Position numbers and translations under genes: made by a program
DNA from: Patescibacteria group bacterium
Lineage (GTDB): Bacteria; Patescibacteriota; Patescibacteriia; UBA1558; GWA2-36-10
Reading direction: 5' to 3'
DNA: 64,000 nucleotides
Assembly (NCBI GenBank): GCA_041662585.1
Contig: JBAZSG010000003.1
Span: 33,011-97,010 of the forward strand
Shown here: positions 1,023-40,229 of the stretch, in pieces
Numbering within the stretch: position 1 is the first letter of the stretch
How the letters are laid out: each line of letters starts with the position of its first letter
The notes under the pieces: model-generated
What the model was told of the DNA's origin: nothing
What the model saw: the letters and a program-made list of their open reading frames with translations, nothing else
Databases searched by the model: none

Positions 1023-2035
1023 ATTTAGATTTTGATAAATCATTAAATTATGAAAGACACCAACGTGATTATTCTATTGTAGTCACTACCCTTGTGTTTA
1101 GAGGTTTGTACAATCAAAATGCCAAGTTTTTTGGTGTAGCTCCTACGGCTTGTTATCTAATAATTAAAAACGATGTTTTATATCATTATATGTCTAAGTA
1201 TGATGGTAAAAGGCGCATGGAAAATTGGCTTCAAAACAATAATATCAAATCTTTTAAAGATCAAGAAAAAATATATTCTGAAAAATTAGAAAAATTTAAT
1301 AAATTTTATAATCAGCAGCCAGATGATTTATTTTTAGCTTTAAAATTGAGCCACGATTTTTTTGTAGATTTCACAGAAATAATTTTATTGGGTTATGAAC
1401 TGCCTTTGTATATGAAAGATATTGCACCTAAAGAAATTATAGATTTTGCTTTTGCTATTAGGCATAAATACGAAGATGTTCACAAAAGAAATGTTGATAT
1501 AACACTAAAGATTTTAAATAAATTGGAAGAAAAGTATAAAATCGAGAAAAATACATTGTCTTATCTAACTATAGATGAGCTAGAAAAATTTTTAAAAACA
1601 GCCGAGTTGCCAGATATTGAAGATAGAAGAAAATATGTATTAATAAAATATGATGGTGATTATTCTTTTTTCTACGACCAAAAAACTTGGAATATTTTAA
1701 ACCCAAAAATAGCTAAAGAATTTGTCCGTGGTAGGACAGCTTTTAAGGGAAAAGTACAAGGCATAGTAAAAGTAATAAATAAGATAAAAGAGGCTGACGA
1801 TTTGAAAGAAGGAGAGATTTTAATTACCAGTATGACAGACCCTCGCTATGTACCAGCTATGAAAAGAGCCGGAGCTATTGTCACTGATGAAGGAGGTATT
1901 ACTTGTCATGCGGCTATAGTTTCTCGTGAGTTAAAAATTCCGTGTGTTATCGGCACAAAAGTTGCTACGGAGATTTTTAAAAATGGCGATATGGTCGAAG
2001 TCGATGCTAATAGTGGTATAGTTAGAAAAATATGA
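1019..2035 (+). CDS. PEP-utilizing-enzyme mobile domain protein, paralog 2 (unique N-terminal domain)
   Basis: C-terminus ...AIVTDEGGITCHAAIVSRELKIPCVIGTKVATEIFKNGDMVEVDANSGIVRKI. There is a 4-nt overlap with both neighbouring genes. Confidence 0.65.
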   Translation: MNLDFDKSLNYERHQRDYSIVVTTLVFRGLYNQNAKFFGVAPTACYLIIKNDVLYHYMSKYDGKRRMENWLQNNNIKSFKDQEKIYSEKLEKFNKFYNQQPDDLFLALKLSHDFFVDFTEIILLGYELPLYMKDIAPKEIIDFAFAIRHKYEDVHKRNVDITLKILNKLEEKYKIEKNTLSYLTIDELEKFLKTAELPDIEDRRKYVLIKYDGDYSFFYDQKTWNILNPKIAKEFVRGRTAFKGKVQGIVKVINKIKEADDLKEGEILITSMTDPRYVPAMKRAGAIVTDEGGITCHAAIVSRELKIPCVIGTKVATEIFKNGDMVEVDANSGIVRKI

Positions 2036-3438: not shown

Positions 3439-3446
3439 TATAATTT

Positions 3447-4373
3447 ATGAGTGAAAAAGAAATGGAAATTATGCCTCAAGGGGGCATAGAAAAACAAAGC
3501 GAAAAGGAAAGAGGTCTAAATAATAGAATATTGCTTAAAATAATTCGTCATGGTGAAAAAACCCCCGAAGGTGCTTTAACTGATTATGGTAGAGAAAAAA
3601 CTAGAGAGACAGTAGCAAATGACAAAAAAATAATAGAAGGCATACAAAAAGTAAAAGTTATGGGTAGTAATGCTGGTCCTAAAAATGAAGCTGGACAAGC
3701 TAGAGCTTTGGAGACAGCTGATATTTATGCAAACACACTGGTTAATGAGGAATATTCTGATCCAGAAATAATAAAGTATGAATCTCGTGCTAGATCAATA
3801 TTGGAAGTGGTTGGTCAAAATACACAACCGCCTTTTAATTGGGGTAAGGAGTATAAAGAAAATTTACCTGAAAATTTTTCAGAATTATCTGATGAGGATA
3901 AAGCAATTGCATCAGCTGAAGCCAATGAAAAAAATCTGACAAAATTAATGACTATGCCCGAAGCAGAAGATTATCGTCAGGAAATATCAGCTAGGTATGC
4001 TATGTTTATAAATACCTATATCAAAATGATAGACCGTATAGAAAATGATCAAAAGATTATGTATCCAGTAGGGGCTCATGGTGGACAAATAGAATTGTTT
4101 TTACAAAAATGTTTAAAACGTAAAACAGAAGATGGTGATGAAATTATTGGTTTTAAGGATAGTAAAGAACTAGGAGGTTCTTTTAATCCTAGTGAAGGAT
4201 TTTTTATTGATATCACCACTGATCAAAATGGAGAAAAGAAAATAGAATTCAATTTTGATGATCCAAAAAGGTTTGAGGGTGAAGAATTGTCACTTGATTT
4301 AGATACTATGTATGAACTTATAGATAAATATAAAGAAAAGTATGGTTCTTTTTATGATAAACAAAACGATTAA
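3447..4373 (+). CDS. histidine phosphatase superfamily (phosphoglycerate-mutase-like) protein
   Basis: N-terminal LLKIIRHGEKTPEGALTDYGREKTRE carries the RHG catalytic motif. A later VGAHGG matches the second-His motif of the PGM-like fold. Confidence 0.5.
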   Translation: MSEKEMEIMPQGGIEKQSEKERGLNNRILLKIIRHGEKTPEGALTDYGREKTRETVANDKKIIEGIQKVKVMGSNAGPKNEAGQARALETADIYANTLVNEEYSDPEIIKYESRARSILEVVGQNTQPPFNWGKEYKENLPENFSELSDEDKAIASAEANEKNLTKLMTMPEAEDYRQEISARYAMFINTYIKMIDRIENDQKIMYPVGAHGGQIELFLQKCLKRKTEDGDEIIGFKDSKELGGSFNPSEGFFIDITTDQNGEKKIEFNFDDPKRFEGEELSLDLDTMYELIDKYKEKYGSFYDKQND

Positions 4374-4389
4374 TTATTATATAAATAAA

Positions 4390-4431
4390 ATAGAAGTAGA
4401 TGCCACAAAAGGTATAGTGAGGAAAGTATAA
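4390..4431 (+). pseudogene. orphan 3' relic of a PEP-utilizer swivel-domain paralog (..IEVDATKGIVRKV*)
   Basis: The in-frame translation of gaagtagatgccacaaaaggtatagtgaggaaagtataa is EVDATKGIVRKV-stop. That is nearly identical to the paralog C-termini VEVDANKGIVKKI and VEVDANSGIVRKI. A stop lies a few codons upstream. Confidence 0.55.
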
Positions 4432-4496
4432 AATAGGCATTAGACAATTTGGTTATTATTAGCTAAACTTTTAATATAATTATTTATATTTTAAAA

Positions 4497-5330
4497 ATGA
4501 AAATATTGATCATAGGCAAAGGCTATCTGGGTACTCGTTGTGCTGAGGCCTGGAAAAATGCTGTCATTAGCGACAAGATCGTAGTCACAGTCAAAGACGT
4601 GGAAGAGCTTATTGACCAACATCAGCCCGATGCTATTTTAAATGCGGCTGGTGTAGTGGGTAAACCAAATGTAGATTGGTGCGAAAACCATCAAATAGAA
4701 ACTATCAAAGGCAATACTATTTTGCCGTTGATTATAGCGGAAGCTTGTCAAAACAAGGGCGTTTATCTTTTACATATGGCCACCGGTTGTATTTTTTATG
4801 GACAGTCTCCTCACGGTGGTCCATGGACAGAAGAGGATTACGGCAATCCAACAGCGGTTTACACCAAATCAAAACTGGCGGCTGATTTAGCTCTGTCTAC
4901 TTTGCCCAATGTCGGTATTGCTCGTATTCGTATGCCTTTTGATAGCTGCTCTCATCCAGCTAATCTCATTGATAAGCTGGCTAAATATGAAAAAATAATT
5001 GATGTAGAAAATTCCATGACGGTAGTAGATGATATGATTGATGTTTTTTATCAATTACTTGAAAAGAAAGCTGAAGGGATATTTCATGTGACCAATCCAG
5101 GGTCCATCAAACACAAAGAAATAATGGAGCTTTACAAAAAATATGTAGATCCAAATCACAGAAATGAATGGATTACCGAAGAAGATTTGGTCAAGCTCGG
5201 GCTGGCCAATAAAAAAAGATCAAATAATATTATGACCTCTTTAAATCTGCCTAAATATGGTATTAAAATGCGGCCGATAAAAGAAGCCGTTGAAGAGGCT
5301 CTTAAAAAATACGCTAAAGGTAAAAAATAA
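4497..5330 (+). CDS. dTDP-4-dehydrorhamnose reductase-like (RmlD-family) sugar-nucleotide reductase
   Basis: MKILIIGKGYLGTRCAEAW Rossmann N-terminus, RmlD-like length and layout. GC is noticeably higher (~40-45%) than in the flanks. Confidence 0.5.
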   Translation: MKILIIGKGYLGTRCAEAWKNAVISDKIVVTVKDVEELIDQHQPDAILNAAGVVGKPNVDWCENHQIETIKGNTILPLIIAEACQNKGVYLLHMATGCIFYGQSPHGGPWTEEDYGNPTAVYTKSKLAADLALSTLPNVGIARIRMPFDSCSHPANLIDKLAKYEKIIDVENSMTVVDDMIDVFYQLLEKKAEGIFHVTNPGSIKHKEIMELYKKYVDPNHRNEWITEEDLVKLGLANKKRSNNIMTSLNLPKYGIKMRPIKEAVEEALKKYAKGKK

Positions 5331-5332
5331 TT

Positions 5333-6061
5333 ATGAGAGGAATAATTTTAGCCGGCGGAGCCGGTAATAGATTGAAACCCTTGACTAAAGTAACTTCTAA
5401 ACAGTTACTGCCTATTTATGATCAGCCGATGATCTATTATCCACTGCAGACTTTAATCAATGGCGGTATCCAAGATATTTTGGTGATTTCTGATCCTAAT
5501 AATATTGGCAATATTGTCCGGTTATTAGGTAGTGGTAAAGATTTTGGTGTCAGAATTCGCTATGAGGTCCAAGATAGTCCCGACGGTCTAGCTCAGGCAT
5601 TTTTGCTTGGTGAGATTTTTATCGGTGATGATGATGTAACTCTTATACTGGGCGACAATCTTTTTGTCGGCGATGGTAAATTTTTGGAGGAAGCGATTCG
5701 AAGTTTTAAGGGTGGTGGTCGGGTTTTTGCCAAGGAAGTGCCAGATCCAGAAAGATATGGTGTAGTAGATTTTGACAAAAAGGGGCAAGCCATTAGCATT
5801 GAAGAAAAACCAAAAAATCCCAAAAGTAATTATGCGGTCACTGGTTTATATATTTATGATAATGGTGTAATTGCCAAAGCCAAAAGTTTGAAACCTTCGG
5901 CTCGCGGAGAATTGGAAATTACCGATGTTAATAATCTTTACCTTAAAGAAGGAAGATTAGATGTCAGAATTTATAAAGATTATTGGCTAGACACCGGTAC
6001 TTTTGATGCTTTACTTGAAGCCGGAAATACTATTGCTAAATTGAGAAAAAATGCTAAATAA
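5333..6061 (+). CDS. glucose-1-phosphate thymidylyltransferase-like nucleotidyltransferase (RmlA family, short form)
   Basis: MRGIILAGGAGNRLKPLTKVTSKQLLPIYDQPMIYYPL is the canonical RmlA/RfbA N-terminus. Confidence 0.65.
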   Translation: MRGIILAGGAGNRLKPLTKVTSKQLLPIYDQPMIYYPLQTLINGGIQDILVISDPNNIGNIVRLLGSGKDFGVRIRYEVQDSPDGLAQAFLLGEIFIGDDDVTLILGDNLFVGDGKFLEEAIRSFKGGGRVFAKEVPDPERYGVVDFDKKGQAISIEEKPKNPKSNYAVTGLYIYDNGVIAKAKSLKPSARGELEITDVNNLYLKEGRLDVRIYKDYWLDTGTFDALLEAGNTIAKLRKNAK

Positions 6062-6063
6062 GT

Positions 6064-6833
6064 ATGAATTTTGAAAATGTTAATGCTAATCTAGAAAAAG
6101 AAAGTAAAGGTGAAAATGTAATTGTTCATTCTGTTTTTATTCGTCATGGAGAAAAATTTCATGATATAAATAATCCAGAAACAGAACTTACTCCTAAAGG
6201 GAGAGAGGCGAGTCGTGAAATTGGAAAAAATAGGCCGGAAGTTGATGCTATAAAAGGCTATAGTAGTGATACTCAAAGAACCCAAACTATGATCCAAATA
6301 ATGAATTTACCAAGAAATTGCAAGGGATAAAAGAAGAGTTGCTAGGAAAAGGATATGATGATTTATCAGAGAATCAAAAAGAAGCCAGGTTAGATGAATA
6401 CAACTCTGTTATTACTGATTGTTATTTAGCTTTGGGTGATCAGAGACCAGATCCAAATACTTATTCCCCAGTAGAAACAGCCGCTACTATGGCCAAGATA
6501 TTGGATAATAATATTAGGATGGCCGATAGATTAAAATCTAATTCAGAAGTTGATTTGGTCAATGCCACACATGATTTTAATATAGTAGCTTTCTTAAAGG
6601 AAGTCTTGGTAAGAAAAATAGATGATAAAAAAGTAGTTGGTTTTGATTCTGTTAAGGAAATAGGAGGAAGTATGGAATTTAATGGTGGTTTTGAAGTTTT
6701 AATAAAGACAGATAATGATGGGCACAAAACTCTAAAAATATTATTTAGAGGAGAAGAATACGAAATAGATGAGACAAGATTAACAGAATTAGTACAAATA
6801 GCCAAAGATTTAAAAAAGCAAGATGAAAAATAA
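6064..6833 (+). pseudogene. histidine phosphatase superfamily paralog, interrupted by a frameshift (ORFs 6064..6330 and 6318..6833)
   Basis: ORF1 has VFIRHGEKFHDINNPETELTPKGREASRE (RHG motif). ORF2 (KEIGGSMEFNGGFEVLIKTDNDGHKTLKILFRGEEYE, VNATHDFN) aligns to the C-terminal two-thirds of 3447..4373. The frame switch lies around 6300-6330. Confidence 0.5.
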
Positions 6834-6850
6834 TATAATAATTTATATAT

Positions 6851-7147
6851 ATGCCAAAATTAAATATAAAACCTTCAAGCAAGGCTAAGCTTAAGATTAA
6901 AAGGCCTATTAAAACAGAATCTAAGTTAGAAAAACTTAATAAAATATTAGATAGAGTACGTCCAGCACTAGAGCGAGATGGAGGCAATCTAGAGCTGATC
7001 AATTTTGATGAAAAAAATGGTTTAGTTGAAATTACATTTCAAGGTGCTTGCGCTCATTGTTCTTTGGCTGATGTTACATTAAAACATTTGATAGAATCTG
7101 AAATTAGAGCTCAAATGCCAGAAATAAAAGAAGTAAGATCTATATGA
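6851..7147 (+). CDS. NifU-like (Nfu-type) Fe-S cluster domain protein
   Basis: VRPALERDGGNLELINFDEKNGLVEITFQGACAHCSLADVTLKHLIESEI matches the NifU C-terminal / Nfu domain pattern (G-x-C-x-x-C ... TLK). The stop overlaps the start of the next gene. Confidence 0.6.
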   Translation: MPKLNIKPSSKAKLKIKRPIKTESKLEKLNKILDRVRPALERDGGNLELINFDEKNGLVEITFQGACAHCSLADVTLKHLIESEIRAQMPEIKEVRSI

Positions 7148-8502
7148 GTAGAAAGTATGATTTTATGTCAAAACCTTGGGTATATTCTATTTCTAGAAAT
7201 ATACATTTTTGGCACGATGAATTATCTATTAAATATAGTTATGCAGGTTGTAAGAAATTAAAATTACCTTCTTTTCATTATGCTCGGATTAATAATACAG
7301 GTCATGGAGATTTTTTTTATTTAGAAACAGGAGAGTATGGTAAGGATAAATTTAATAAAGCTTTAGAAGATAATTTTAAAGATAAAAAATATATTAATTT
7401 TTTAGAAAATTATTATATCAGTAATGGAGAAAAATTGGTTGAACATTCTAAAAAATTAAAATTAGATTATAAAGAATTTAAAGATTATTTTACAGAATAT
7501 GGAATAATGTGTCCTACTTTAGATGGTACTAACACAGGCAGTAAAATTATTACAGATTATTTATTAAATAAGTTATCTAGCTATCCTGATGCTACTGACA
7601 TTATTTCTTATTACTCTCAAATGCCTAAAAAAAGTCCCATGCAGAAGATGGATGAGGAGTTAGCTAAAGGCATTAAAAATAAAGTAGATAAAAAGAAATT
7701 AGCTAAAACATTATATAATAAGTATTGTTGGATACCAATTAGTTTTATTGGAGATCCTTGGGATTTAAAATATTTTGAAGATAAGATTAAAAAATATAGT
7801 CCAAATAAAGAACATAAATTATCTAAACCAAAAGTTCAAATAGCAGATAATTTAATGTATTACTTAAAATTATTAGGTAAAATAGCTTATTTAAATGAAT
7901 ATAGAAAATCTGTTTTTACTAGAGCCAATTATTATATTAGGCCGTTATTAGAAAAAATTGCTCAGGAGTATAATTTGGGTACTTGGAAAGAAATAAATCT
8001 TTTAGCTAGTAATGAGATATTAGATTTATTAGATGGTAAAGATGATTATCAAAAAAAATTGATAAAAGAGAGAAGAAAGGACTGGTTAATGTATGCGGTT
8101 GGTCGAGAGGGTATTGATTATGTCCATGGAAAGTTGGTAAAAGATTTTAGAAATAAATTTATGCCAAAAGCGAATGGTTTAAATTATGTTTCAGGTACAA
8201 TTGCCAATAAAGGTAAGGTCAGAGGTGTAGTAAAAATTATATATGAACCAAAAGATTTTAATAAGTTTAAGAAAGGGGATATATTAGTAGCTAAGATGAC
8301 CTCTATTGATTTTATACCAATAATGAAGCGTGCGGCAGCTTTTGTTACTAACGAAGGGGGTTTAGCATGTCATGCAGCTATAGTTTCTCGTGAATTAAAC
8401 ATCCCCTGTATAATAGGAGCTAAGATAGCTACCGAAGTTTTTAAAGACGGTGACAGAGTAGAAGTAGATGCTAATAGAGGTATAGTTAAGAAGATAAAAT
8501 AA
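7144..8502 (+). CDS. PEP-utilizing-enzyme mobile domain protein, paralog 4 (unique N-terminal domain)
   Basis: C-terminus ...AAFVTNEGGLACHAAIVSRELNIPCIIGAKIATEVFKDGDRVEVDANRGIVKKIK. Confidence 0.65.
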   Translation: MSRKYDFMSKPWVYSISRNIHFWHDELSIKYSYAGCKKLKLPSFHYARINNTGHGDFFYLETGEYGKDKFNKALEDNFKDKKYINFLENYYISNGEKLVEHSKKLKLDYKEFKDYFTEYGIMCPTLDGTNTGSKIITDYLLNKLSSYPDATDIISYYSQMPKKSPMQKMDEELAKGIKNKVDKKKLAKTLYNKYCWIPISFIGDPWDLKYFEDKIKKYSPNKEHKLSKPKVQIADNLMYYLKLLGKIAYLNEYRKSVFTRANYYIRPLLEKIAQEYNLGTWKEINLLASNEILDLLDGKDDYQKKLIKERRKDWLMYAVGREGIDYVHGKLVKDFRNKFMPKANGLNYVSGTIANKGKVRGVVKIIYEPKDFNKFKKGDILVAKMTSIDFIPIMKRAAAFVTNEGGLACHAAIVSRELNIPCIIGAKIATEVFKDGDRVEVDANRGIVKKIK

Positions 8503-8520
8503 TTTTAGACAAACGGAAAA

Positions 8521-8573
8521 GCGGCGACACGTTGTGTGTGTCGCCGCTTTGTTGTTAGTCCGTTGAGCGGACT
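8521..8573. terminator. pair of GC-rich hairpins (gcggcgacac..gtgtcgccgc and agtccgttgagcggact) acting as a bidirectional terminator
   Basis: Perfect inverted repeats, followed by a T-rich run on either strand. Confidence 0.55.
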
Positions 8574-9147
8574 ACTCTTCAATCCAGACGGCATCGATAC
8601 TGCCGTCGTCGTATAGGCGGAAGCGAATCGCTTCCATGGCATCGAGGCTGTGAGCATCGGTCATGCCGAGACACTTGGCCAGCATGGGGATGGTGGGATC
8701 GTGGAAGATCCCGACACCGTGCTGACCCGAATCCATCAGGTCGAACATCTGCTTGAGAGCATTGCGGGCTCCAATGTTGAAGTCAACGAGTACCTGCCGG
8801 TCGATGTTTACGAGCACGGCCTCCATATTGGAGAGGCCACCCTTGATGTCGGCCCGGACATGGTCGGTGATGATAGTGGCGAACAGTTCGCTACTACCGA
8901 GACCGTGGATCGGGTCATGCATCTTCACATGAGTGAAGGCCTGATTGGCTGTCATCATGGCGATGGCGGTTTCGCAGGTGCGGGCGAGAGGCCCCCAGAA
9001 GAGATGGTGAATATTCATGTTGCCTTCGTCGTAGCGCTCCGAGCCTATTTCGTAGGCGTAGGTGGCTCCGTCATAGGAGACATGATTGCCACCGGTATCT
9101 TTGTGCGTGTGGCGATACAAGTCTACGGTTTTGGTTATCTGGGCCAT
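8572..9147 (-). CDS. GC-rich histidine phosphatase superfamily-like protein (start placed at MAQITK..)
   Basis: Strong GC3 codon periodicity. The SD AGGGAGG lies 6 nt upstream of the ATG at 9147. DLYRHTHKD and later WGPLARTCETA resemble the RHG and S-x-L-x-RA-x-QTA motifs of the PGM/SixA fold. The ORF track's longer start at 9213 has no RBS. Confidence 0.45.
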   Translation of the reverse strand: MAQITKTVDLYRHTHKDTGGNHVSYDGATYAYEIGSERYDEGNMNIHHLFWGPLARTCETAIAMMTANQAFTHVKMHDPIHGLGSSELFATIITDHVRADIKGGLSNMEAVLVNIDRQVLVDFNIGARNALKQMFDLMDSGQHGVGIFHDPTIPMLAKCLGMTDAHSLDAMEAIRFRLYDDGSIDAVWIEE

Positions 9148-9222
9148 TTTGGGCCTCCCTGTTTTGGGTTTTGTATGGTACGCCCCTAAATATAGGGGAT
9201 TCTTGTATTTCAAGAATATATT

Positions 9223-9251
9223 AGTATAGCATATTTTTTATTTAATGTCAA
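9223..9251 (-). promoter_or_regulatory. sigma70-like promoter TTGACA-N17-(TGc)TATACT for 8572..9147
   Basis: The reverse complement reads ttgacattaaataaaaaatatgctatact, with an extended -10 TGn. Confidence 0.5.
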
Positions 9252-9292
9252 TATATATAATATATATTATATAGTAAAAAATACTATAAACA

Positions 9293-9321
9293 TTGACATT
9301 TATACTATATCATGCTAGACT
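9293..9321 (+). promoter_or_regulatory. sigma70-like promoter TTGACA-N17-(TGc)TAGACT for 9341..11149
   Basis: cattgacatttatactatatcatgctagact sits 20 nt before the ATG and is divergent from the minus-strand promoter. Confidence 0.45.
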
Positions 9322-9340
9322 GAGTAATTGATAAAAACAT

Positions 9341-11149
9341 ATGTTGGATAAAATTATAAATTCAAAAACTCGTCTAGCTATCTTGTCTTTATTTTTTAAA
9401 AATCAAGACAAAGAATTTTATGCTGGAGAGATTATCAAACAAAGCAATATGGATGCAGCTAATGTCCATAAAGAATTAAAAAATTTGGTAGCTGGTAAAT
9501 TTGTATTGCAAGAAGATAAATCAAGTAGAAAATATTTTTCTTTAAATAAAGATAATATTTTTTATAATGGTTTGGATAAGGTATTTAGTCAATATAAAGT
9601 ATCCATATCTGGAGATGTGTGGTTTTCTTTGGAATCAATGCCAAATTATTATCCTATGGTGGTGGCTTTTACTTGGAATGTAAAACGAGCCAATGATTTT
9701 TTACAAAGCCGTGGCTATAAAAATAAATTTACCAAACTACTCACTACCTATAACAATAATATCAATGATTTGCTTTTGATTAAAAAAGAATTTGACGACT
9801 TATCACAAGAAACTTTAGATAAGATTAATTCTGATCCAGATTGGGGGCATAGATATGTTGATGATTTATCACAAGCCATCCCTAAGTTGGTTAAAGCCAC
9901 TAAAGATTTGGAAAAAGTAAATTTGGGCAAATTATCCAATGAAGAATTATATAATTTATATCAGGAGTATTATGATGCTTATGGACGTCTTCATAGATTT
10001 CACTGGGTACAAACCATCGCTGATTTTGGTGACAATTTGTTTTCTAAATATCTAATGAATTATTTGCGTCATAAGGTCAAAGATAGCCAATATTCTTTGG
10101 GAGAAGTCTTTTCTACTTTGACAACTCCGATAGAAGACGGTCAAGCCGCTAAAGAGTATCAAAATTTATTAGGTATCTTAAAAAATATAATAGCTGATGA
10201 AAATCTAAAACAATATTTTAAAGATACCGAAACTCGTATTATTTACAGAGATTTAAAAAATGTTAATAAGGTTGTTGATGAACAAATTTCTGAACATACT
10301 GGGCTCTATGGTTATCTTGGTTATGGTATGGCCGGCCCTGGTTGGGGTAAAGACTATTTTATTGATATTTTAGGATCTTTGGTCAGACAGAATACCAATC
10401 CTAGTGAATTATTGGATAATTTACAAAAAGACAAAATAAACATTGAAGCCAAACAGCAGAAATTTATTAAACAACTAGAGGTAGATGAAAAACATCAGCA
10501 ATTGTTTGAAGTAGCTAGAGGTTTGGTTTTTACCAAAGGTACTCGCAAGGAATCTATGTTTTACAGTTATAGTGTTATAGAAAATTTGTTTAGAGAAATT
10601 GGTCGCCGTTATTATTTATCGGTCAATCAGGTGAGATATTTTTATCCCCATGAATTTGAAGATTTATTGCTTCACAATAAATTTAGTGCGGCTAAACTAA
10701 ATGAGCGTTATAAATTTAGTTTGCAATATTCAGTAGGTGATTATCATCAAGATAAATTATTAGAAGGTGAAGAAGCTAGAAAATTTTTAGAAAATTTTAA
10801 TATTGTCAAAGAGGAAATCGTTGATATTAAAGTAATGGAAGGAGATTGTGCTTCTCCTGGTCGAGCTCGTGGTAGTGCAAAAATTATCAATATTCCCAAA
10901 GATATGAGTAAAATGGAACAAGGCGATGTGCTTATATCTATCGCCACTACTCCGGATTTAGTACCAGCTATTAAAAAGGCTAGTGCTATTGTCACTGACG
11001 TCGGAGGTATTACTTGTCATGCTGCCATTGTTTCTCGTGAATTGGGCATTCCTTGTGTTATTGGTACTAAAATCGCTACCAAAGCCTTAAAAGATGGTGA
11101 TGTAGTAGATGTAGATGCTACGCATGGTAAAGTTACGATTGTCCGGTAG
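9341..11149 (+). CDS. winged-helix (ArsR/MarR-like) DNA-binding domain fused to a PEP-utilizing-enzyme mobile domain, paralog 5
   Basis: N-terminus KTRLAILSLFFKNQDKEFYAGEIIKQSNMDAANVHKELKNLVAGKFV is a wHTH pattern. C-terminus ...ASAIVTDVGGITCHAAIVSRELGIPCVIGTKIATKALKDGDVVDVDATHGKVTIVR. Confidence 0.6.
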   Translation: MLDKIINSKTRLAILSLFFKNQDKEFYAGEIIKQSNMDAANVHKELKNLVAGKFVLQEDKSSRKYFSLNKDNIFYNGLDKVFSQYKVSISGDVWFSLESMPNYYPMVVAFTWNVKRANDFLQSRGYKNKFTKLLTTYNNNINDLLLIKKEFDDLSQETLDKINSDPDWGHRYVDDLSQAIPKLVKATKDLEKVNLGKLSNEELYNLYQEYYDAYGRLHRFHWVQTIADFGDNLFSKYLMNYLRHKVKDSQYSLGEVFSTLTTPIEDGQAAKEYQNLLGILKNIIADENLKQYFKDTETRIIYRDLKNVNKVVDEQISEHTGLYGYLGYGMAGPGWGKDYFIDILGSLVRQNTNPSELLDNLQKDKINIEAKQQKFIKQLEVDEKHQQLFEVARGLVFTKGTRKESMFYSYSVIENLFREIGRRYYLSVNQVRYFYPHEFEDLLLHNKFSAAKLNERYKFSLQYSVGDYHQDKLLEGEEARKFLENFNIVKEEIVDIKVMEGDCASPGRARGSAKIINIPKDMSKMEQGDVLISIATTPDLVPAIKKASAIVTDVGGITCHAAIVSRELGIPCVIGTKIATKALKDGDVVDVDATHGKVTIVR

Positions 11150-11215
11150 ACAAAAGGTCCATTGGACTTTTTGTTTTAAGCATACTAAAATTAAGATAAA
11201 TATTAATTTATTACT

Positions 11216-12154
11216 ATGGAATTAGTCAGAGATTTTAAAAAAATAGATAAAAATCATGTCGCTTTGGCTGGAGGTAAGGGGGCATCTTTAGGAGAAATGA
11301 CCAAAGCGGGTATTCCTGTACCACCTGGTTTTGTGGTTTTATCTGGAGCTTTTGACAGATTTTTAGAAGAAACAGATTTGAATGTAGAAATAGAAGCTAT
11401 TTTAAAAACAGTTAAACATGAAGATGTTAATTCTGTGGAAAAGTCTTCTTTAAAAATAAGAGATTTAATTGCTGATGCTAAGATGCCAGAGGATATTGCC
11501 AAAGAAATTAAAGTATCTTTTAAAAAGCTTGATGCTAAATATGTAGCTGTGCGTTCTTCTGCTACAGCTGAGGATTCATCTATTGCATCTTGGGCCGGAG
11601 AATTGGAGTCATATCTTAATACCACAGATAAAGATTTGCTTGATAATGTCAAAAAATGTTGGTCATCACTTTTTACACCTCGGGCAATTTTTTATCGTTT
11701 TGAAAAAAAATTACATAACACTAAGGTATCTGTAGCTGTGGTAGTACAAGCAATGGTGCAGTCACAAGTGAGTGGTATTGTTTTTACTGTTCATCCAGTC
11801 ACAGAAGATCAGAAACAGATGATTATTGAAGCTGGTTGGGGATTGGGTGAAGCTATTGTTTCAGGTATGGTTACTCCCGATGCTTATGTTATAGATAAAA
11901 CAGATTTTTCTATTGTGGATATCAATATTTCAGATCAAGCCAAATACATTATCAAAACTAACAAAGGCAACAAATTTACAGATGTGCCTAGTGATAAACG
12001 TGAAGAGCAAAAATTGTCTGGTGCTCAGATTGTAGAGCTAGCCAAAATTTGTGTGGATATTGAAAAACACTACGGCTTTCCTTGTGATATAGAATGGGCT
12101 ATGGAAAAAAATAAATTTTATATTACCCAGTCCAGACCAATCACCACTTTATAA
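11216..12154 (+). CDS. free-standing PEP synthase / pyruvate phosphate dikinase N-terminal ATP-grasp (PPDK_N) domain protein
   Basis: VALAGGKGASLGEMTKAGIPVPPGFVVLSGAF matches the PpsA N-terminus (GGKGANLGEL..GxxVPxGF). Only 312 aa, with no swivel and no PEP-binding domain. Confidence 0.7.
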   Translation: MELVRDFKKIDKNHVALAGGKGASLGEMTKAGIPVPPGFVVLSGAFDRFLEETDLNVEIEAILKTVKHEDVNSVEKSSLKIRDLIADAKMPEDIAKEIKVSFKKLDAKYVAVRSSATAEDSSIASWAGELESYLNTTDKDLLDNVKKCWSSLFTPRAIFYRFEKKLHNTKVSVAVVVQAMVQSQVSGIVFTVHPVTEDQKQMIIEAGWGLGEAIVSGMVTPDAYVIDKTDFSIVDINISDQAKYIIKTNKGNKFTDVPSDKREEQKLSGAQIVELAKICVDIEKHYGFPCDIEWAMEKNKFYITQSRPITTL

Positions 12155-12171
12155 ATTTTATATAAAAGAAA

Positions 12172-12198
12172 AGAGCCCAGTTGTTTAGACAGGGCTCT
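12172..12198. terminator. bidirectional rho-independent terminator hairpin (agagccc..gggctct)
   Basis: The inverted repeat is flanked by an A-run upstream and a T-run downstream. Confidence 0.55.
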
Positions 12199-12221
12199 TT
12201 TAAATTCGCGGTGTTGGCGAA

Positions 12222-12719
12222 TTATACCTCGGTTTCGCCGAGTTGGTCGAGAATCGACCAGCCGATTTCACCGTTTTCGTCGATGGTGATCTCGATGACT
12301 GAGCCGCTTTTGGCGGCTTCTATACCCAGAGACTTGGCAAATGGTCTGCCGGTGCATAGCACAGCCCCATCGGGCAGAGACTCCAGGAAAGCAGGAATGG
12401 CGGGCGCCATATCAGCGATGCCGGTGTAGGCATCATAGGCACAGTGGTTGCCGTCGGCAAAGACGATGGTCGGCTGACCATCGATCATGTCGAGCGACGT
12501 GGCGTCACCCAGAAGCAGAGTTGAGCGGGTCATGGTCAGACCCAGTGTGGCAGCAACGTGCCGATGTCGGCGACCAGTGCCGCATATTACAGCCGCAGGA
12601 TTTTCAGGGAGGAGTCCCTTGAGGGACTCAATCTGATTTACTCCTTTGAGAGTCATCAGGGGGTCAGCCCCATCGCTCTTGTCGCCGTGCAATACGGCGA
12701 AAAATTGATTGACTTTCAC
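12222..12719 (-). CDS. GC-rich SixA-like (phosphohistidine phosphatase-type) histidine phosphatase family protein, GTG start
   Basis: GC3-rich codons. FFAVLHGDKSDGADPLMTLKG ... VICGTGRRHRHVAATLGL has the same layout as SixA (IMRHGDA...RPLT.NG ... VLVSPFLRAEQT), but with L in place of the catalytic R. Confidence 0.4.
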   Translation of the reverse strand: MKVNQFFAVLHGDKSDGADPLMTLKGVNQIESLKGLLPENPAAVICGTGRRHRHVAATLGLTMTRSTLLLGDATSLDMIDGQPTIVFADGNHCAYDAYTGIADMAPAIPAFLESLPDGAVLCTGRPFAKSLGIEAAKSGSVIEITIDENGEIGWSILDQLGETEV

Positions 12720-12766
12720 TTTTTAGCCTTTCTTTTGGGTTGTAGGGTACTTGATTTTAATATAAT

Positions 12767-12795
12767 ATTATAGCATATTTTTATACTTTTGTCAA
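12767..12795 (-). promoter_or_regulatory. sigma70-like promoter TTGACA-N17-(TGc)TATAAT for 12222..12719
   Basis: The reverse complement reads ttgacaaaagtataaaaatatgctataat. Confidence 0.5.
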
Positions 12796-12845
12796 TGATA
12801 GTATTTTTTTAAAAATAATTATTTTGAGGTGGTGTTTTATTGCTA

Positions 12846-12874
12846 TTGACAATAATCACTATATATGCTAATAT
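12846..12874 (+). promoter_or_regulatory. consensus sigma70 promoter TTGACA-N17-TAATAT
   Basis: ttgacaataatcactatatatgctaatat. It drives the GC-rich transcript that ends at the 13286-13319 terminator. Confidence 0.5.
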
Positions 12875-13027
12875 ACAAAATACTTTGATTTTGTAGTGTC
12901 TATCGCTTGTATAAGCAAGGACACTCAAGTCAGGGTAGTATCATTACAATCAAAAAAGGTTGCGACCAAAAGTTGGTTGCAACCAAACAAACACTGAAGT
13001 TGGCCAAGCAGGCCAAGGAGGTTCTTG

Positions 13028-13120
13028 ATGCGTACCTACAAGAAGCATCACTCGCCCCCGTCCGTGGTTTTTACGAATATTATCACCAAAAAGGCGAAGA
13101 AGACCGCCACGACGAGCTGA
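13028..13120 (+). CDS. small ORF MRTYKKHHSPPSVVFTNIITKKAKKTATTS with a perfect SD
   Basis: AAGGAGG lies 6 nt upstream of the ATG. The track's alternative 12907..13167 ORF starts with TTG inside the hairpins and lacks an RBS. Confidence 0.3.
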   Translation: MRTYKKHHSPPSVVFTNIITKKAKKTATTS

Positions 13121-13285
13121 CCGAGATCCGGCCGGCGGTCGTGATTCTGATGAGTATCAGAAAATAAGCTCAATCAGACAACGACCTGCCGAACGAACGA
13201 ACATCAAAAAACTGAATTCGCCGGCGCAAGCCGTACAAAAATGACGGCGATTTGCCGACGATTCAGCAGTGCTCTTCTGTGTATG

Positions 13286-13319
13286 CCGCCCCACCTAGCT
13301 AGGTCGGGGCGGTTTTTTA
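13286..13319 (+). terminator. strong rho-independent terminator (ccgccccacctag/ctaggtcggggcgg + T7)
   Basis: A 12-13-bp GC stem followed directly by TTTTTTATT. Confidence 0.7.
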
Positions 13320-13394
13320 TTGACATTTTTTCTTAAAATTGTTCAAATATTGGGTAGATTTTTTATAAATAATGTGTTAAAATAAGTACATAAT

Positions 13395-13754
13395 ATGTCT
13401 ATAATTCGCACCAGCAAAGTATTATATAAAGATAAATTAGCTTTTTGGCTAATTAATTTTTCTTTTTTGTCTATATTAGCCACTTGGTTTTTATTTTTTA
13501 TTAAAAGAATCAAATATGATCCTTTGGCTGTACTACATTACAATATTTACTCGGGGATTGATATTTTGGGTGCTTGGTACATACTTTTTATTATTCCGGT
13601 TTTAGTTTTAATTGTATCATTTTTAGATTTCTTTTTAGCGGTATTACTTTGGACTAAAGTAAGGGTCATGAGTTATTTTTTATTGCTTACTATTTTACTT
13701 ATAAATGTTTTTATGTTTTTATTTTTATATAATATATTAAATTACAATTTATAA
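13395..13754 (+). CDS. small integral membrane protein (3 predicted TM segments), unknown function
   Basis: Highly hydrophobic 119-aa ORF immediately upstream of mraY. Confidence 0.4.
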   Translation: MSIIRTSKVLYKDKLAFWLINFSFLSILATWFLFFIKRIKYDPLAVLHYNIYSGIDILGAWYILFIIPVLVLIVSFLDFFLAVLLWTKVRVMSYFLLLTILLINVFMFLFLYNILNYNL

Positions 13755-21595: not shown

Positions 21596-21832
21596 ATGAC
21601 AGAACAAGAGCCGAAAGTAAACAAAAAAGGATTTTTGGAGATGGATGGAGAAGTGTTAGATCTTCTTCCTAATGCCAACTTTAAAGTGGTTTTGGAAAAC
21701 GGCCATGAGGTTTTGGCTCATTTAGCTGGTAAGATGCGTATGTTTAAGATAAGAATCTTACCTGGTGATAAAGTCACTATAGAAATGAGTCCCTATGATA
21801 TGAGTAAAGGAAGAATTATTTATAGAAAATAA
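21596..21832 (+). CDS. infA: translation initiation factor IF-1
   Basis: S1-like OB fold with IF-1 signatures. Confidence 0.9.
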
Positions 21833-21838
21833 TATAGT

Positions 21839-21952
21839 ATGAAAGTAAGATCATCAGTGAAAAAAATGTGCAAAGACTGCAAAATCACTCGTCGTAAGAA
21901 CAGAGTGGTTTGTATTTGTAAAAATCCTAAACATAAACAAAGACAAGGATAA
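21839..21952 (+). CDS. rpmJ: 50S ribosomal protein L36 (not in the ORF track, 38 aa)
   Basis: [37 protein letters not shown] is the canonical L36 zinc ribbon. Confidence 0.9.
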
Positions 21953-21989: not shown

Positions 21990-22376
21990 ATGGCCAGAAT
22001 CGCAGGTATAAATATTCCAAGTGAAAAAAGAGCTGAAATAGCCCTTACTTATATTTATGGTATTGGTTTGACAACTGCTCAAAAAATATTAAAAGAAGTA
22101 AAGCTTGACGCTAATAAAAAAATCAAAGATTTTAGTGATGAAGAAATCAATCTAATTAGAAAAAGATTAGAAACCATCAAAGTAGAAGGTGAACTTCGTC
22201 GTGATAAAATATCAAACATCAAGAGACTCAAAGAAATAAAATCATACCGTGGCTCTCGTCATGTAAAAAACTTACCTGCCCGAGGTCAAAGATCAAAAAC
22301 CAATTCTCGTACTATACGCGGTAACAAGCGTGTTACTATGGGAAGTGGTAAAGCCAAACCCGAACAAAAAACTTAA
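21990..22376 (+). CDS. rpsM: 30S ribosomal protein S13
   Basis: MARIAGINIPSEKRAEIALTYIYGIG. Confidence 0.92.
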   Translation: MARIAGINIPSEKRAEIALTYIYGIGLTTAQKILKEVKLDANKKIKDFSDEEINLIRKRLETIKVEGELRRDKISNIKRLKEIKSYRGSRHVKNLPARGQRSKTNSRTIRGNKRVTMGSGKAKPEQKT

Positions 22377-22397: not shown

Positions 22398-22784
22398 ATG
22401 GTAAAGACAATAAAATCAAAAAAGAAAGTAAAAAAGAGTATTAAAAAAGGACAAGCTTATATTCAAGCTACCTACAATAATACTGTTGTTACTGTTACTG
22501 ATGAACAAGGTAATACTTTGGCTTGGTCATCTGCTGGTTTAAATGGTTTTAAAGGCCCTAAAAAAGCTACTCCTTATGCAGCTGGTATTATTGTTAGAAA
22601 TGTTTCTGACAAGGTAAAAGAAATGGGTTTGGCAACAGTAGATATTTTTGTAAAAGGAGTTGGAGCTGGTCGTGAAGCTGCAATTCGTGCTTTTCACGCC
22701 AATGGTTTAGCAATTGGCTCTATCAAAGATATGACTCCAATACCTCACAATGGTTGTAGACCAAGAAAACAAAGAAGAGTATAA
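22398..22784 (+). CDS. rpsK: 30S ribosomal protein S11
   Basis: AWSSAGLNGFKGPKKATPYAA. Confidence 0.92.
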   Translation: MVKTIKSKKKVKKSIKKGQAYIQATYNNTVVTVTDEQGNTLAWSSAGLNGFKGPKKATPYAAGIIVRNVSDKVKEMGLATVDIFVKGVGAGREAAIRAFHANGLAIGSIKDMTPIPHNGCRPRKQRRV

Positions 22785-22801: not shown

Positions 22802-23410
22802 ATGGCTAGAAATTTAAAACCAAGACATAAAGCAAGTCGTAGATTTGGCGAAAACGTTGCTGATACTTTGAAGGAATCAAAGAAAAACTATCCTCCAGGA
22901 ATGCATGGTCCTAAAAAGACTTTTGCTAAAACCTCAGAATTTGGACGTCAGTTAAAAGAAAAGCAAAAGGCCAAAGCTATTTATGGTATTTTAGAAAAGC
23001 AATTTAGATTGACTTTTGAAGATGCTGCTAAATTATCAGGTGATTTGGGTCAAAATTTATTGATAACCCTTGAAAGTCGTTTGGATAATGTAATTCATCG
23101 TTCAGGACTGGCTCAAACTAGACGTTTGGCTCGTCAATTGGTGACTCATGGACATTTTACTGTAGATGGTGTAGCTACTGATATTCCTTCATATCGAGTT
23201 AAGGCAGGTCAAATTATTAAAGTAAAAGAAAATAAAACCAAAAAAGGTTATTGGGCAAATTTATTAGAGGGTATTGATAAAGTACAAACTGCTGGTTGGT
23301 TATCACTAGATGGTAAAAACCTAACCATTACTGTCAATTCTCTACCAAATAAAGAAGAATTGCCAAATAACATTGATACTCCACTAATAGTTGATTTTTA
23401 TTCTAGATAA
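22802..23410 (+). CDS. rpsD: 30S ribosomal protein S4
   Basis: MARNLKPRHKASRRFGENV with an S4 domain. Confidence 0.9.
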   Translation: MARNLKPRHKASRRFGENVADTLKESKKNYPPGMHGPKKTFAKTSEFGRQLKEKQKAKAIYGILEKQFRLTFEDAAKLSGDLGQNLLITLESRLDNVIHRSGLAQTRRLARQLVTHGHFTVDGVATDIPSYRVKAGQIIKVKENKTKKGYWANLLEGIDKVQTAGWLSLDGKNLTITVNSLPNKEELPNNIDTPLIVDFYSR

Positions 23411-23437: not shown

Positions 23438-24220
23438 ATGATTCAAATTACATTCCCAGATAAAACAAGTATAAAGGATTTAAAGGATAATCACTATCAA
23501 GTGGTCATTGAACCCTTTTTTCCTGGTTTTGGTGTAACAGTAGGCAATGCTCTTCGTAGAGTACTACTTTCATCACTTGAGGGTGCTGCTGTGACTTCTT
23601 TTAAAGTAGAAGGAGCTCAACACGAATTTGATTCTGTCGAGGGTGTTAAAGAAGACTTGGTAGAGATAATGTTAAATTTGAAACAGTTAAGAGTTAAATC
23701 TTTTTCTGAAGAACCTGTAAAATTGATTTTAGATGTTAAAGGCGAAAAAGTTGTAACGGCAGCTGATATTAAAAAGAATGCTGATGTAGAAATCATTAAT
23801 TCAGATTTAGTGATTGCTACCATTACTGATAAAAATACAAAATTTGGAATGGAAATAACGGTTGAACAAGGTAGAGGCTATGTGACTGTAGAACAACGTG
23901 ATGATAGTAAAAAATTGGAGATTTCTAATGTGGCTATTGATTCTAGTTTTTCACCAGTATTAAATGTAGGTTACAAAATAGACAATGTGCGTGTTGGTGA
24001 AATGACTAATTACGAAAGACTCACCATTGATATGTTAACCGATGGTACAATTGATGCTAAAGTAGCTATTTCTCGTGCGGCTAAGATTTTGGAAGATCAT
24101 TTTAAATTGTTTATTGAAGAAGAAATACCAGTAGTAAGCAAAAAGAAAGATAAAGATGTAGAAGAAAAACCAAAAAAAGTTACCAAAAAAGTAAGTACTA
24201 AAGACAAAGAAGATAAATAA
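23438..24220 (+). CDS. rpoA: DNA-directed RNA polymerase alpha subunit, N-terminal domain only (no recognisable alpha-CTD; Lys-rich tail)
   Basis: GNALRRVLLSSLEGAAVTSFKVEG... is the alpha-NTD. The protein ends after ~225 aa with KKKDKDVEEKPKKVTKKVSTKDKEDK, and rplQ starts 2 nt later. Confidence 0.8.
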   Translation: MIQITFPDKTSIKDLKDNHYQVVIEPFFPGFGVTVGNALRRVLLSSLEGAAVTSFKVEGAQHEFDSVEGVKEDLVEIMLNLKQLRVKSFSEEPVKLILDVKGEKVVTAADIKKNADVEIINSDLVIATITDKNTKFGMEITVEQGRGYVTVEQRDDSKKLEISNVAIDSSFSPVLNVGYKIDNVRVGEMTNYERLTIDMLTDGTIDAKVAISRAAKILEDHFKLFIEEEIPVVSKKKDKDVEEKPKKVTKKVSTKDKEDK

Positions 24221-24221
24221 T

Positions 24222-24572
24222 ATGAGACATAGAAAAGTAGGTAAAAAATTGGGCAGAGAAGCCGGACCACGCAAAGCTTTGACAGATAGCTTGGCTACTT
24301 CATTGGTATTGTATGAAAAAATAGTAACTACTGAAGCCAAGGCCAAAGCTATTCGTCCTATTGTAGAAAAACTTATTACACGTTCCAAAGTAAAGTCTGT
24401 ACACAATAAACAACAATTGGGTAGAGTTTTGGAAGACAAAAAAGCTGTACAAAAACTATTGGATGTTATTGGACCAAAATATAAAGATAGAAAAGGTGGC
24501 TATACTCGCATTATAAAAATGACTCGTCGTCAAGGTGATGGTGCTGCTATGGCTCAAATTGAACTGGTATAA
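24222..24572 (+). CDS. rplQ: 50S ribosomal protein L17
   Basis: MRHRKVGKKLGREAGPRKAL. Confidence 0.9.
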   Translation: MRHRKVGKKLGREAGPRKALTDSLATSLVLYEKIVTTEAKAKAIRPIVEKLITRSKVKSVHNKQQLGRVLEDKKAVQKLLDVIGPKYKDRKGGYTRIIKMTRRQGDGAAMAQIELV

Positions 24573-24576
24573 ATAT

Positions 24577-24924
24577 ATGGAAAGAACAACACACAAAATT
24601 GATGCAGAAGGTAAGATAGCTGGTAGATTGGCCAGTGAGATTGCTATGCTTTTGCAAGGTAAAAATAGAGTAGATTATCAAGCACATACAGATTGTGGTG
24701 AAATTGTTGAAGTAACAAATGTAGCTGGTATGAAATTTTCTGGTAAAAAACTAGAAAGCAAAGTTTATAATCGAGTTACCGGTTATCCAGGTGGTCTTCG
24801 TACCAAAAGAGTAAAAAATATGATGGCAGAAGAGCCTCAAGAAGTACTTCGTAAGATGGTTTATATGATGCTTCCAAAAAATAAACTTAGACCTAATATG
24901 ATTAAAAGATTAAAAGTAAGCTAA
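24577..24924 (+). CDS. rplM: 50S ribosomal protein L13 (start moved to MERTTHKIDAEGK)
   Basis: KIDAEGKIAGRLASEIAMLLQGK matches L13. The track start at 24535 lies inside rplQ. Confidence 0.85.
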   Translation: MERTTHKIDAEGKIAGRLASEIAMLLQGKNRVDYQAHTDCGEIVEVTNVAGMKFSGKKLESKVYNRVTGYPGGLRTKRVKNMMAEEPQEVLRKMVYMMLPKNKLRPNMIKRLKVS

Positions 24925-24925
24925 T

Positions 24926-25339
24926 ATGGCAGTTAATAAAGAAAACAAAGATTATATTCCAGCTGTTGGCAAAAGAAAAAGAGCCATTGCTAGAATTAGA
25001 ATCATCAAAAATAATGTTAAGGGTCTAAAGATTACCATCAATGACAAAGACTACAAAGAATATTTACCTTATTTAGAATGGCAAGAATTAATTTTGAGGT
25101 CATTAAAATTGGCCGGTAGAGATAATATTACTATTAGTATCAAAGTTGCTGGTGGTGGAATCAAAGGACAAGTAGATGCTATAAAACACGGTATTGCCAA
25201 AGCATTGCTTAAGACTGATGAAGATTTACGTTCTACTTTGAAAAAAGATGGTTTACTTACTAGAGATTCTCGTATAAAAGAAAGAAAGAAACCTGGTCTT
25301 AAAAAAGCTCGTAAAGCTCCACAATGGAGTAAGAGATAA
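24926..25339 (+). CDS. rpsI: 30S ribosomal protein S9
   Basis: C-terminus ...GLKKARKAPQWSKR. Confidence 0.9.
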   Translation: MAVNKENKDYIPAVGKRKRAIARIRIIKNNVKGLKITINDKDYKEYLPYLEWQELILRSLKLAGRDNITISIKVAGGGIKGQVDAIKHGIAKALLKTDEDLRSTLKKDGLLTRDSRIKERKKPGLKKARKAPQWSKR

Positions 25340-39257: not shown

Positions 39258-40229
39258 ATGGAAAAGTCAAAAAAGACAATAATTAAGCACATCCCCCATT
39301 TCTTAGAATATTGTGAAGTTGCTAAAGGTTTAGCTAATTTAACTGTTAAAAATTATGATAGATTTTTATCACCATTTCAAAAATGGTTGAATAAAAATAA
39401 ATTATCAGACCTTCTCCCCCATGAATTATCGCAACAGCATATTTGGGATTATCGTTTGTATTTATCTAGGTATGTAAATCCTAATTTAAAAGCTAATCTC
39501 TTAAAAACAACTCAAAATTATTATTTAATTGCTTTGAGAAGTTTATTGTCTTATTTTGCTGAAAAAGATATATCCTCTCTCCCCCCAGAAAAGATTAAAC
39601 TTAGTAAAGATAAAAAAGGTCGCGTGGTAAAATTTTTATCACTAGATCAAATTGAAAAACTATTGTTAGCACCTGATATTGAAAAATTTTCAGGTCTTCG
39701 AGATAGAGCTATTTTAGAAACATTGTTTAGTACTGGTTTAAGGGTATCAGAGCTTATTGCTCTTAATACAGATGTAATCAATTTAGAAATATTAAATAAA
39801 AATAAAAAAAAGGATTTAGAATTAGTAATAATTGGCAAGGGAAGACAACCACGAACAGTATATTTATCAGAAAGAACTATAAATTGGTTAATAAAATATT
39901 TAAATAAAAGGCAAGACAGTGATTCAGCTTTATTTATTAATGCTCTTCAACATAAAATTACTTCATCTAAACGTCTTTCGGTGCGAGCGGTGGAAATAAT
40001 GATTAAAAAGTATTGCAAATTAACTGGATTGCCCATTACTACCACTCCTCATACTATACGACACTCCTATGCAACAGATTTATTAGAACAAGGAGTAGAT
40101 TTAAGAACTATACAGGAATTTCTTGGCCATCGTAATATTGTAACTACACAAGTTTATACGCATGTTACTAATAAACATTTAAGAGATGTCCATAGAGCAT
40201 TTCATAGTGGAAGAAATTTAAAAAATTAA
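39258..40229 (+). CDS. tyrosine site-specific recombinase (XerC/XerD family)
   Basis: R..HxxR..Y catalytic box HTIRHSYATDLLEQGVDLRTIQEFLGHRNIVTTQVYTHV. Confidence 0.8.
   Translation: MEKSKKTIIKHIPHFLEYCEVAKGLANLTVKNYDRFLSPFQKWLNKNKLSDLLPHELSQQHIWDYRLYLSRYVNPNLKANLLKTTQNYYLIALRSLLSYFAEKDISSLPPEKIKLSKDKKGRVVKFLSLDQIEKLLLAPDIEKFSGLRDRAILETLFSTGLRVSELIALNTDVINLEILNKNKKKDLELVIIGKGRQPRTVYLSERTINWLIKYLNKRQDSDSALFINALQHKITSSKRLSVRAVEIMIKKYCKLTGLPITTTPHTIRHSYATDLLEQGVDLRTIQEFLGHRNIVTTQVYTHVTNKHLRDVHRAFHSGRNLKN

Follow-up and report, generated by a model that had tools for sequence, protein, structure and literature searches.

The rpoA gene in the 64-kb stretch of Patescibacteria DNA analysed here (the whole stretch is called the window) encodes an RNA polymerase (RNAP) alpha subunit with a complete N-terminal domain (NTD), no C-terminal domain (CTD) and, in place of the latter, a charged tail that is predicted to be disordered. 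Very probably this gene encodes a naturally CTD-less alpha subunit that is fixed in the whole clade to which the window protein belongs.

The rpoA gene and its product

The domain content of the protein was determined by profile searches (coordinates of the gene and its parts are given in Table 1). The insert domain (PF01000) was matched at residues 57-172 (E 2.2e-29, 102.6 bits, cutoff 33.9) and the Rpb3/Rpb11-type dimerisation domain (PF01193) was matched with 79.4 bits (E 1.6e-22, cutoff 24), and PF03118, the helix-hairpin-helix alpha-CTD, gave no match in the Pfam scan even at E<=1. A custom CTD hidden Markov model (HMM), built from 20 Patescibacteria CTDs together with those of E. coli and B. 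subtilis, gave no match to the protein either. TIGR02027 scored 259.6 bits (cutoff 227.8) and covered profile positions 3-235 of 298; across the NCBIfam rpoA models, only positions 1 to about 250 of 298-340 were aligned, and the protein stays under the cutoffs of the PRK05182 sub-models, as it lacks the CTD part. The first-pass annotation, made from the sequence, had proposed that RpoA is the alpha NTD only and had expected the Pfam model of the alpha-CTD to be absent, and both statements are borne out by these searches.

Solved RpoA chains (PDB) aligned to residues 1-247, corresponding to the NTD and the start of the linker (best E 5e-57); the solved alphas, including that of B. subtilis, were 40-45% identical to the window protein (E 1e-51 to 1e-57), and the assembly motif GNALRRVLLSS is present in this alignment. 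AlphaFold2, run with a 25-sequence alignment, built the NTD with a last helix at residues 207-223 (mean predicted local distance difference test score, pLDDT, 68.5), while residues 229-260 had pLDDT <50 and no secondary structure, and this part of the tail is predicted to be disordered. The tail as a whole (residues 227-260, EEEIPVVSKKKDKDVEEKPKKVTKKVSTKDKEDK) contains 12 Lys and 10 Asp/Glu in about 34 residues, in agreement with the Lys/Glu-rich low-complexity end described earlier.

The rplQ gene was correctly placed directly after rpoA by the first-pass annotation, but the end of rpoA was not: its stop codon ends at 24220 rather than at 24222, and the two genes are separated by a single nucleotide (24221). 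As the ATG of rplQ lies at 24222 and the L17 protein is complete, there is indeed no coding room for a CTD ahead of rplQ.

The identical protein (P0001) is found in NCBI, JGI and ENA as a protein of a Patescibacteria metagenome-assembled genome (MAG), and is carried on a 702,058-bp contig (ENA ERZ27249449 k141_305749). The best 120 homologues in a collection of 5.8 billion proteins were 63-100% identical and 231-305 amino acids long, all with PF01000 and PF01193, and PF03118 was found in none of the 120 (precomputed Pfam assignments, with which the custom CTD HMM agrees). A scan of GTDB with one genome per species gave 80 rpoA loci. In all 32 of these with at least 63% identity the ORF (open reading frame) spans 249-276 amino acids, and in 31 of the 32 rplQ lies at most 34 nt 3' of rpoA (overlap at most 1 nt), the rplQ of the remaining locus being outside the fetched stretch; the record titles of the 32 loci are Candidatus Komeilibacteria, Parcubacteria and Patescibacteria group bacterium. 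Conservation of the NTD is strong (alignment A1 of close relatives has 68 invariant columns). The comparison across relatives suggested by the first-pass annotation thus gave a CTD-less alpha in all close relatives, and the sequences indicate that the rpoA frame is intact, ends after the NTD and is fixed in the lineage, and that the gene is no pseudogene.

A frameshift, a premature stop or a mis-assembly could also truncate a normal rpoA and leave the CTD segment hidden on its 3' side, and public parallels are known, with a frameshifted or overlapping CTD ORF in two loci (L082 and L084) and an in-frame TGA between NTD and CTD in two others (L085/L086). In the window, however, the complete rplQ begins 1 nt past the rpoA stop, no CTD-like sequence is present in any of the six frames, and the architecture recurs in the 120 nearest homologues and the 32 species representatives, which come from independent assemblies. 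An artefact of this kind, named in the first-pass annotation as a way in which a CTD might be hidden, is exceedingly improbable, and was treated as excluded.

Distribution of the CTD and searches for it elsewhere

The closest named relatives of this Patescibacteria genome are Candidatus Komeilibacteria and Parcubacteria MAGs. Loci with 47-57% identity in the GTDB scan fell into two groups, 20 with a CTD and about 27 without. The CTD of the 20 more distant loci shows the pattern LSxRxxNxL...GxGxKSxxEI, and these loci are labelled Doudnabacteria, Moranbacteria and Paceibacterota, with some assigned to Saccharibacteria by automated pipelines; the CTD-less loci at this distance include further Komeilibacteria as well as Magasanikbacteria. 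Every close relative is CTD-less and more distant Patescibacteria have the CTD, so the distribution points to a loss of the alpha-CTD that is derived and clade-specific within Patescibacteria. The clade may correspond roughly to class ABY1 (Komeilibacteria, Magasanikbacteria and allies).

HMMER was also run exhaustively against 1.84 billion cluster representatives, and the best 150 matches were classified: 85 had a CTD, 48 were short and CTD-less, and 17 were long and apparently CTD-less. The 17 long representatives (299-401 amino acids) turned out to be mostly chimeric or frameshifted database proteins, with a few long-tailed variants, and were left out of the statistics together with P0025, a 305-residue protein from a 1545-bp ENA contig in which an RpoA NTD of the clade runs into KOW-domain (NusG/Spt5-like) sequence and which probably reflects a chimeric contig. 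The CTD classification was upheld by Pfam in 48 of 48 CTD-less proteins (47 short or long-tailed representatives plus the window protein) and in 7 of 7 positive controls with a CTD. In a neighbour-joining tree of 241 non-redundant sequences (228 NTD columns), on which CTD states were reconstructed by Fitch parsimony, the window protein falls in a 134-tip clade that is 100% CTD-less, within a 186-tip clade that is 92% CTD-less, and the root state is CTD-positive. CTD-positive Doudnabacteria-like sequences are nested among CTD-less groups in this tree; a claim of multiple CTD losses was dropped, the tree being too crude to tell one loss from several.

The alpha-CTD, or an analogue of it, might instead have its gene at another place in the genome, on its own, fused to another protein or within a second rpoA paralogue. 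About 90% of the source contig (around 640 kb) lies outside the searched window, short PF03118-only ORFs are present in metagenomes, and Francisella has two alpha paralogues (PDB 6wmp). Against this, a scan of all six frames of the window with the custom CTD HMM found no CTD, downstream of rpoA or elsewhere; the sole match below E 0.1 (12 bits), the ORF at 1019-2035, was rejected, as Pfam identifies it as a PEP-utilizer-domain protein (PEP, phosphoenolpyruvate). Two CTD-profile searches of the 5.8-billion-protein collection for stand-alone CTDs gave 35 and 314 matches, 120 of the 314 being listed, and the matches listed are short PF03118-only ORFs alone. The context of five of these ORFs was examined, and each occupies the place of rpoA directly 5' of rplQ. 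Four are preceded by an rpoA-NTD ORF or by a fragmented region in the rpoA position, and appear to be pieces of rpoA rather than trans genes; the contig of the fifth (L087) ends about 230 nt upstream, before any NTD. None of the five was accepted as a trans CTD gene, the explanation being a frameshift in L082 and L084, an in-frame TGA in L085/L086, fragmentation of the gene calls in L083 and the end of the contig in L087. The longest contigs among the CTD-only matches listed measure 226 kb and 101 kb, against 350-860 kb for contigs with CTD-less rpoA, so that none of the matches listed is on a contig as long as the latter, a weak negative (the searches rely on shared words). A stand-alone CTD ORF, raised as a possibility by the first-pass annotation, is therefore absent from the six frames of the window and weakly disfavoured by the database searches, and a CTD encoded elsewhere is considered unlikely.

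In L085 (positions 992-1915, ENA ERZ27250602), a related Patescibacteria rpoA has an in-frame TGA at the boundary of NTD and linker (...ILAQHFA*VADEIS...), followed by a normal CTD and rplQ, and the identical 86-residue CTD ORF occurs in a second sample (L086, positions 1-393, ENA ERZ27250635). The TGA itself was read in L085, whereas in L086 a separately called ORF stops immediately ahead of the CTD ORF; the arrangement could reflect read-through or recoding of the stop codon, or a true separation of NTD and CTD. In L082 (5145-6204, NCBI GCA_046350905.1) and L084 (3282-4192, JGI 3300055511), rpoA is split between an ORF for the NTD and one for the CTD that overlaps it or is frameshifted, one of the two CTD ORFs being annotated by NCBI as 'alpha C-terminal domain-containing protein'; these breaks probably stem from frameshifts in sequencing rather than marking CTD genes of their own.

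The charged tail and its possible role

Charge is unevenly distributed in the tail of the window protein, with a net charge of -3 in the N-terminal half and +5 in the C-terminal half, and the same acidic-then-basic segregation is seen in the tails of homologues. A total of 163 unique CTD-less tails were compared with 63 NTD-CTD linkers of CTD-positive relatives. Median length was 32 amino acids in both sets (tails range from 5 to 75), while Lys content was 28% and 14%, and median net charge +1 and -3, in tails and linkers, respectively. At least six K/R in a window of ten residues were found in 76% of the tails (35% after shuffling) and 13% of the linkers, and the C-terminal half of a tail was on average 3.9 charges more positive than its N-terminal half (0 after shuffling); these shuffle statistics count related sequences as independent and are descriptive only.

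The only tail motif conserved in close relatives is a Lys cluster, [EK]KPKK-x-TKK (alignment A1), present as KPKKVTKK in the window protein. The related pattern KK-x(1-3)-KK occurs in 104 of the 134 sequences of the CTD-less clade of the window protein, relative to a shuffled expectation of about 50 (maximum 63). Eight CTD-less alphas from a few lineages (L034, L038, L041, P0080, P0126, P0130, P0147 and P0192), and no CTD-positive proteins, end in K(K/R)RGRPKK, which contains an AT-hook core; the Pfam AT_hook model (PF02178) scored these tails at 12.5-15.4 bits, below its cutoff of 17.4 bits. The R-G-R-P core is absent from the tail of the window protein, which has no GRP and carries the KPKKVTKK cluster only. 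As read from sequence, the KRGRPKK termini suggest a compensating, non-specific binding to AT-rich DNA.

In E. coli, the alpha NTD is enough for the assembly of alpha2-beta-beta' and for basal transcription (Igarashi & Ishihama 1991, Hayward et al. 1991, cited in PMC8321222), and the alpha-CTD is required for UP elements and activators (references within PMC8321222). By analogy with this biochemistry, the alpha NTD dimer of the window lineage would nucleate the core enzyme as usual, and the holoenzyme would lack the reading of UP elements and the docking of class-I-type activators by the alpha-CTD, so that promoter use should depend on sigma-DNA contacts. Such sigma-reliant initiation would fit a small-genome organism (702-kb contig). 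The tail, for its part, may be the former NTD-CTD linker with an acquired C-terminal Lys cluster. In a genome of 31% GC, such a tail could bring RNAP into weak contact with AT-rich upstream DNA, without sequence specificity, and partly replace the interaction between alpha-CTD and UP element. That the former linker has turned into a weak non-specific binder of AT-rich DNA is a tentative proposal, made by analogy and less probable than not. Equally doubtful is the wider idea that many Patescibacteria, a large clade of them, have exchanged the folded alpha-CTD in functional terms for a disordered acidic spacer with a Lys-cluster or AT-hook tail that would contact the minor groove of AT-rich upstream DNA.

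Several observations weigh against reading rpoA as a clade-wide CTD-less alpha with a repurposed tail. The rough neighbour-joining tree (228 columns) requires at least 13 state changes, some of them probably artefactual, and the CTD search spans the 64-kb window out of a contig that is 702 kb or longer, which leaves room for a second rpoA paralogue or for a CTD that is encoded in trans or has diverged strongly. As regards the tail, its sequence is low in complexity and poorly conserved, the window protein itself has a modest cluster (5 K in 10 residues) and a net charge of only +2 over the tail, and in about a dozen sequences of its clade the tail is acidic throughout and lacks a basic cluster; DNA binding is therefore no universal role of the tail.

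The main rival explanation holds that the tail is a neutral low-complexity remnant of the NTD-CTD linker and that the polymerase does without any contact between alpha and DNA. The identical median length of tails and linkers is what a remnant would give, as are the unconserved sequence and variable length of the tails, the purely acidic tails of one sub-lineage, and the fact that K/E-rich linkers already exist in CTD-positive relatives. A remnant accounts less readily for a Lys content about twice that of the linkers, for basic residues that are non-randomly clustered and C-terminally placed, and for a KK-x-KK pattern kept about twice as often in the clade as shuffling predicts; the RGRP core, moreover, sits at the extreme C-terminus and is never found in CTD-positive proteins, and tails of about 30 residues persist in genomes under strong reduction. 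On balance, this explanation is given about an even chance of being correct.

If the tail does bind DNA, it would show how a short disordered basic segment can take the place of a folded DNA-binding domain, and the polymerase would have evolved, on one of its own subunits, a minimal counterpart of the UP-element reader that needs no folded structure. The alpha-CTD is usually regarded as a universal part of bacterial RNAP and is the dock for UP elements and many activators. A species-rich, widespread clade without it, with sister groups that have it, is a natural experiment in minimal transcription initiation, for which promoters without alpha-dependent UP function and an absence of class-I-type activation are predicted. 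In practical terms, pipelines, completeness checks and phylogenomic marker sets that expect an RpoA of about 320 amino acids will score such genes as partial, and several NCBIfam rpoA sub-models already fall under cutoff on the window protein.

Related systems and other features of the window

The window protein shares an orthologous NTD, the GNALRRVLLSS motif and the operon position with canonical RpoA of E. coli and B. subtilis, but canonical RpoA carries its own helix-hairpin-helix CTD of about 65-80 residues, which contacts UP elements and activators, where the window protein has its K/E-rich tail. CTD-less alphas have been reported from the endosymbionts Candidatus Hodgkinia and Tremblaya and for the Euglena chloroplast rpoA (PMC8321222), and the same paper states in one sentence, the only such statement found, that Parcubacteria lack the alpha-CTD. 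The source cited there for Parcubacteria (Nelson & Stegen 2015, PMC4508563) lists rpoA, in its accessible parts, as a core gene only, and the domains of RNAP are not discussed in those parts; no dedicated study of the alpha-CTD or rpoA in Patescibacteria or the candidate phyla radiation (CPR) was found in the literature. All of these alphas have kept the NTD and lost the CTD in lineages with reduced genomes, as has the window lineage. The NTDs of Hodgkinia and Tremblaya are eroded, however, whereas that of the window lineage is fully intact; its tails, in addition, carry a basic cluster or an AT-hook-like end, and the loss is mapped to a clade with CTD-positive sister groups. A CTD-less alpha per se is thus already known, and the window protein is a further case. 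What is apparently new, as far as could be determined, is that the loss is placed in one clade of Patescibacteria whose sisters are CTD-positive, that a linker-derived tail has changed in charge, and that some alphas end in AT-hook-like termini.

Archaeal Rpo3(D)/Rpo11(L) and eukaryotic Rpb3/Rpb11 and AC40/AC19 have the same dimerisation and insert domains and likewise no DNA-binding CTD. The window protein differs from Rpo3 and Rpb3 in being of the bacterial alpha type, presumably a homodimer: the RpoL model NF002233 matched it marginally (E 0.01), and all strong matches were to bacterial alpha models and structures. Its likeness to Rpo3/Rpb3 is a case of convergent loss and not of ancestry.

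A parallel to the tail is found in CarD of Myxococcus xanthus, in which an RNAP-binding module precedes a disordered acidic stretch and basic AT-hooks of the RGRP type; this part binds AT-rich DNA in its minor groove (PMC4374960). The title of Garcia-Heras et al. 2009, a reference of PMC4374960, describes the AT-hook region and a histone-H1-like domain as functional equivalents in this factor. The HMGA-like domain of CarD and the alpha tail have a common layout, an acidic spacer and then a basic end on an RNAP-binding module. In other myxobacteria, the histone-H1-like variant of the CarD tail is Lys-rich. CarD, however, is a separate factor that has four AT-hooks and binds the beta subunit, whereas the tail of the window lineage is much shorter and is part of alpha itself; in the window protein it has a Lys cluster without RGRP.

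The rpoA locus has the gene order infA-rpmJ-rpsM-rpsK-rpsD-rpoA-rplQ-rplM-rpsI (Table 1), and the rpsM-rpsK-rpsD-rpoA-rplQ context is kept in related loci.

Table 1. Coordinates of rpoA, its parts and the neighbouring genes in the window
Feature	Coordinates	Strand	Basis
rpoA coding sequence, CTD-less RNAP alpha, 260 aa	23438..24220	+	ATG start, TAA 24218-24220
alpha NTD (dimerisation / beta-beta' assembly), residues 1-226	23438..24115	+	Pfam limits, alignment to solved alphas
Lys/Glu-rich tail, residues 227-260, predicted disordered	24116..24217	+	sequence, pLDDT, charge counts
Lys cluster KPKKVTKK, residues 244-251	24167..24190	+	alignment A1 of close relatives
rplQ (L17), complete	24222..24572	+	PF01196 E 9e-34, profile positions 3-97/97
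infA	21596-21832	+	source-contig gene calls, Pfam families
rpmJ	21839-21952	+	source-contig gene calls, Pfam families
rpsM	21990-22376	+	source-contig gene calls, Pfam families
rpsK	22398-22784	+	source-contig gene calls, Pfam families
rpsD	22802-23410	+	source-contig gene calls; S4 Pfam matches
rplM	24577-24924	+	source-contig gene calls
rpsI	24926-25339	+	source-contig gene calls

Rfam and tRNA scans of the whole window (GC about 31%) gave nothing relevant. At its 5' end, five plus-strand ORFs (54-1022, 1019-2035, 2032-3438, 7144-8502 and 9341-11149) have as their sole Pfam match the PEP-utilizers mobile domain (PF00391, E 1e-21 to 1e-26) at the C-terminus, with no assignment for the 250-520 residues that precede it, and an ORF 3' of them (11216-12154, plus strand) encodes a stand-alone PPDK_N ATP-binding domain; the region 54-12154 is an unusual paralogue array of split phosphotransfer modules. 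It is followed by about 1.2 kb (12154-13395) without a convincing ORF and with a GC content of 0.39, relative to about 0.31, in which no tRNA and no Rfam family over threshold was found; a minus-strand ORF at 12222-12719 (164 amino acids) had no Pfam match. Proteins of giant size and unknown function are typical of Patescibacteria, and the window contains a minus-strand ORF of 2049 amino acids (55092-61241) that matched no Pfam family at E<=0.001. Finally, a tyrosine recombinase/integrase (PF00589, E 5e-37) is encoded amid housekeeping genes at 39258-40229 (plus strand), and could be either XerC/D or a marker of an integrated element.

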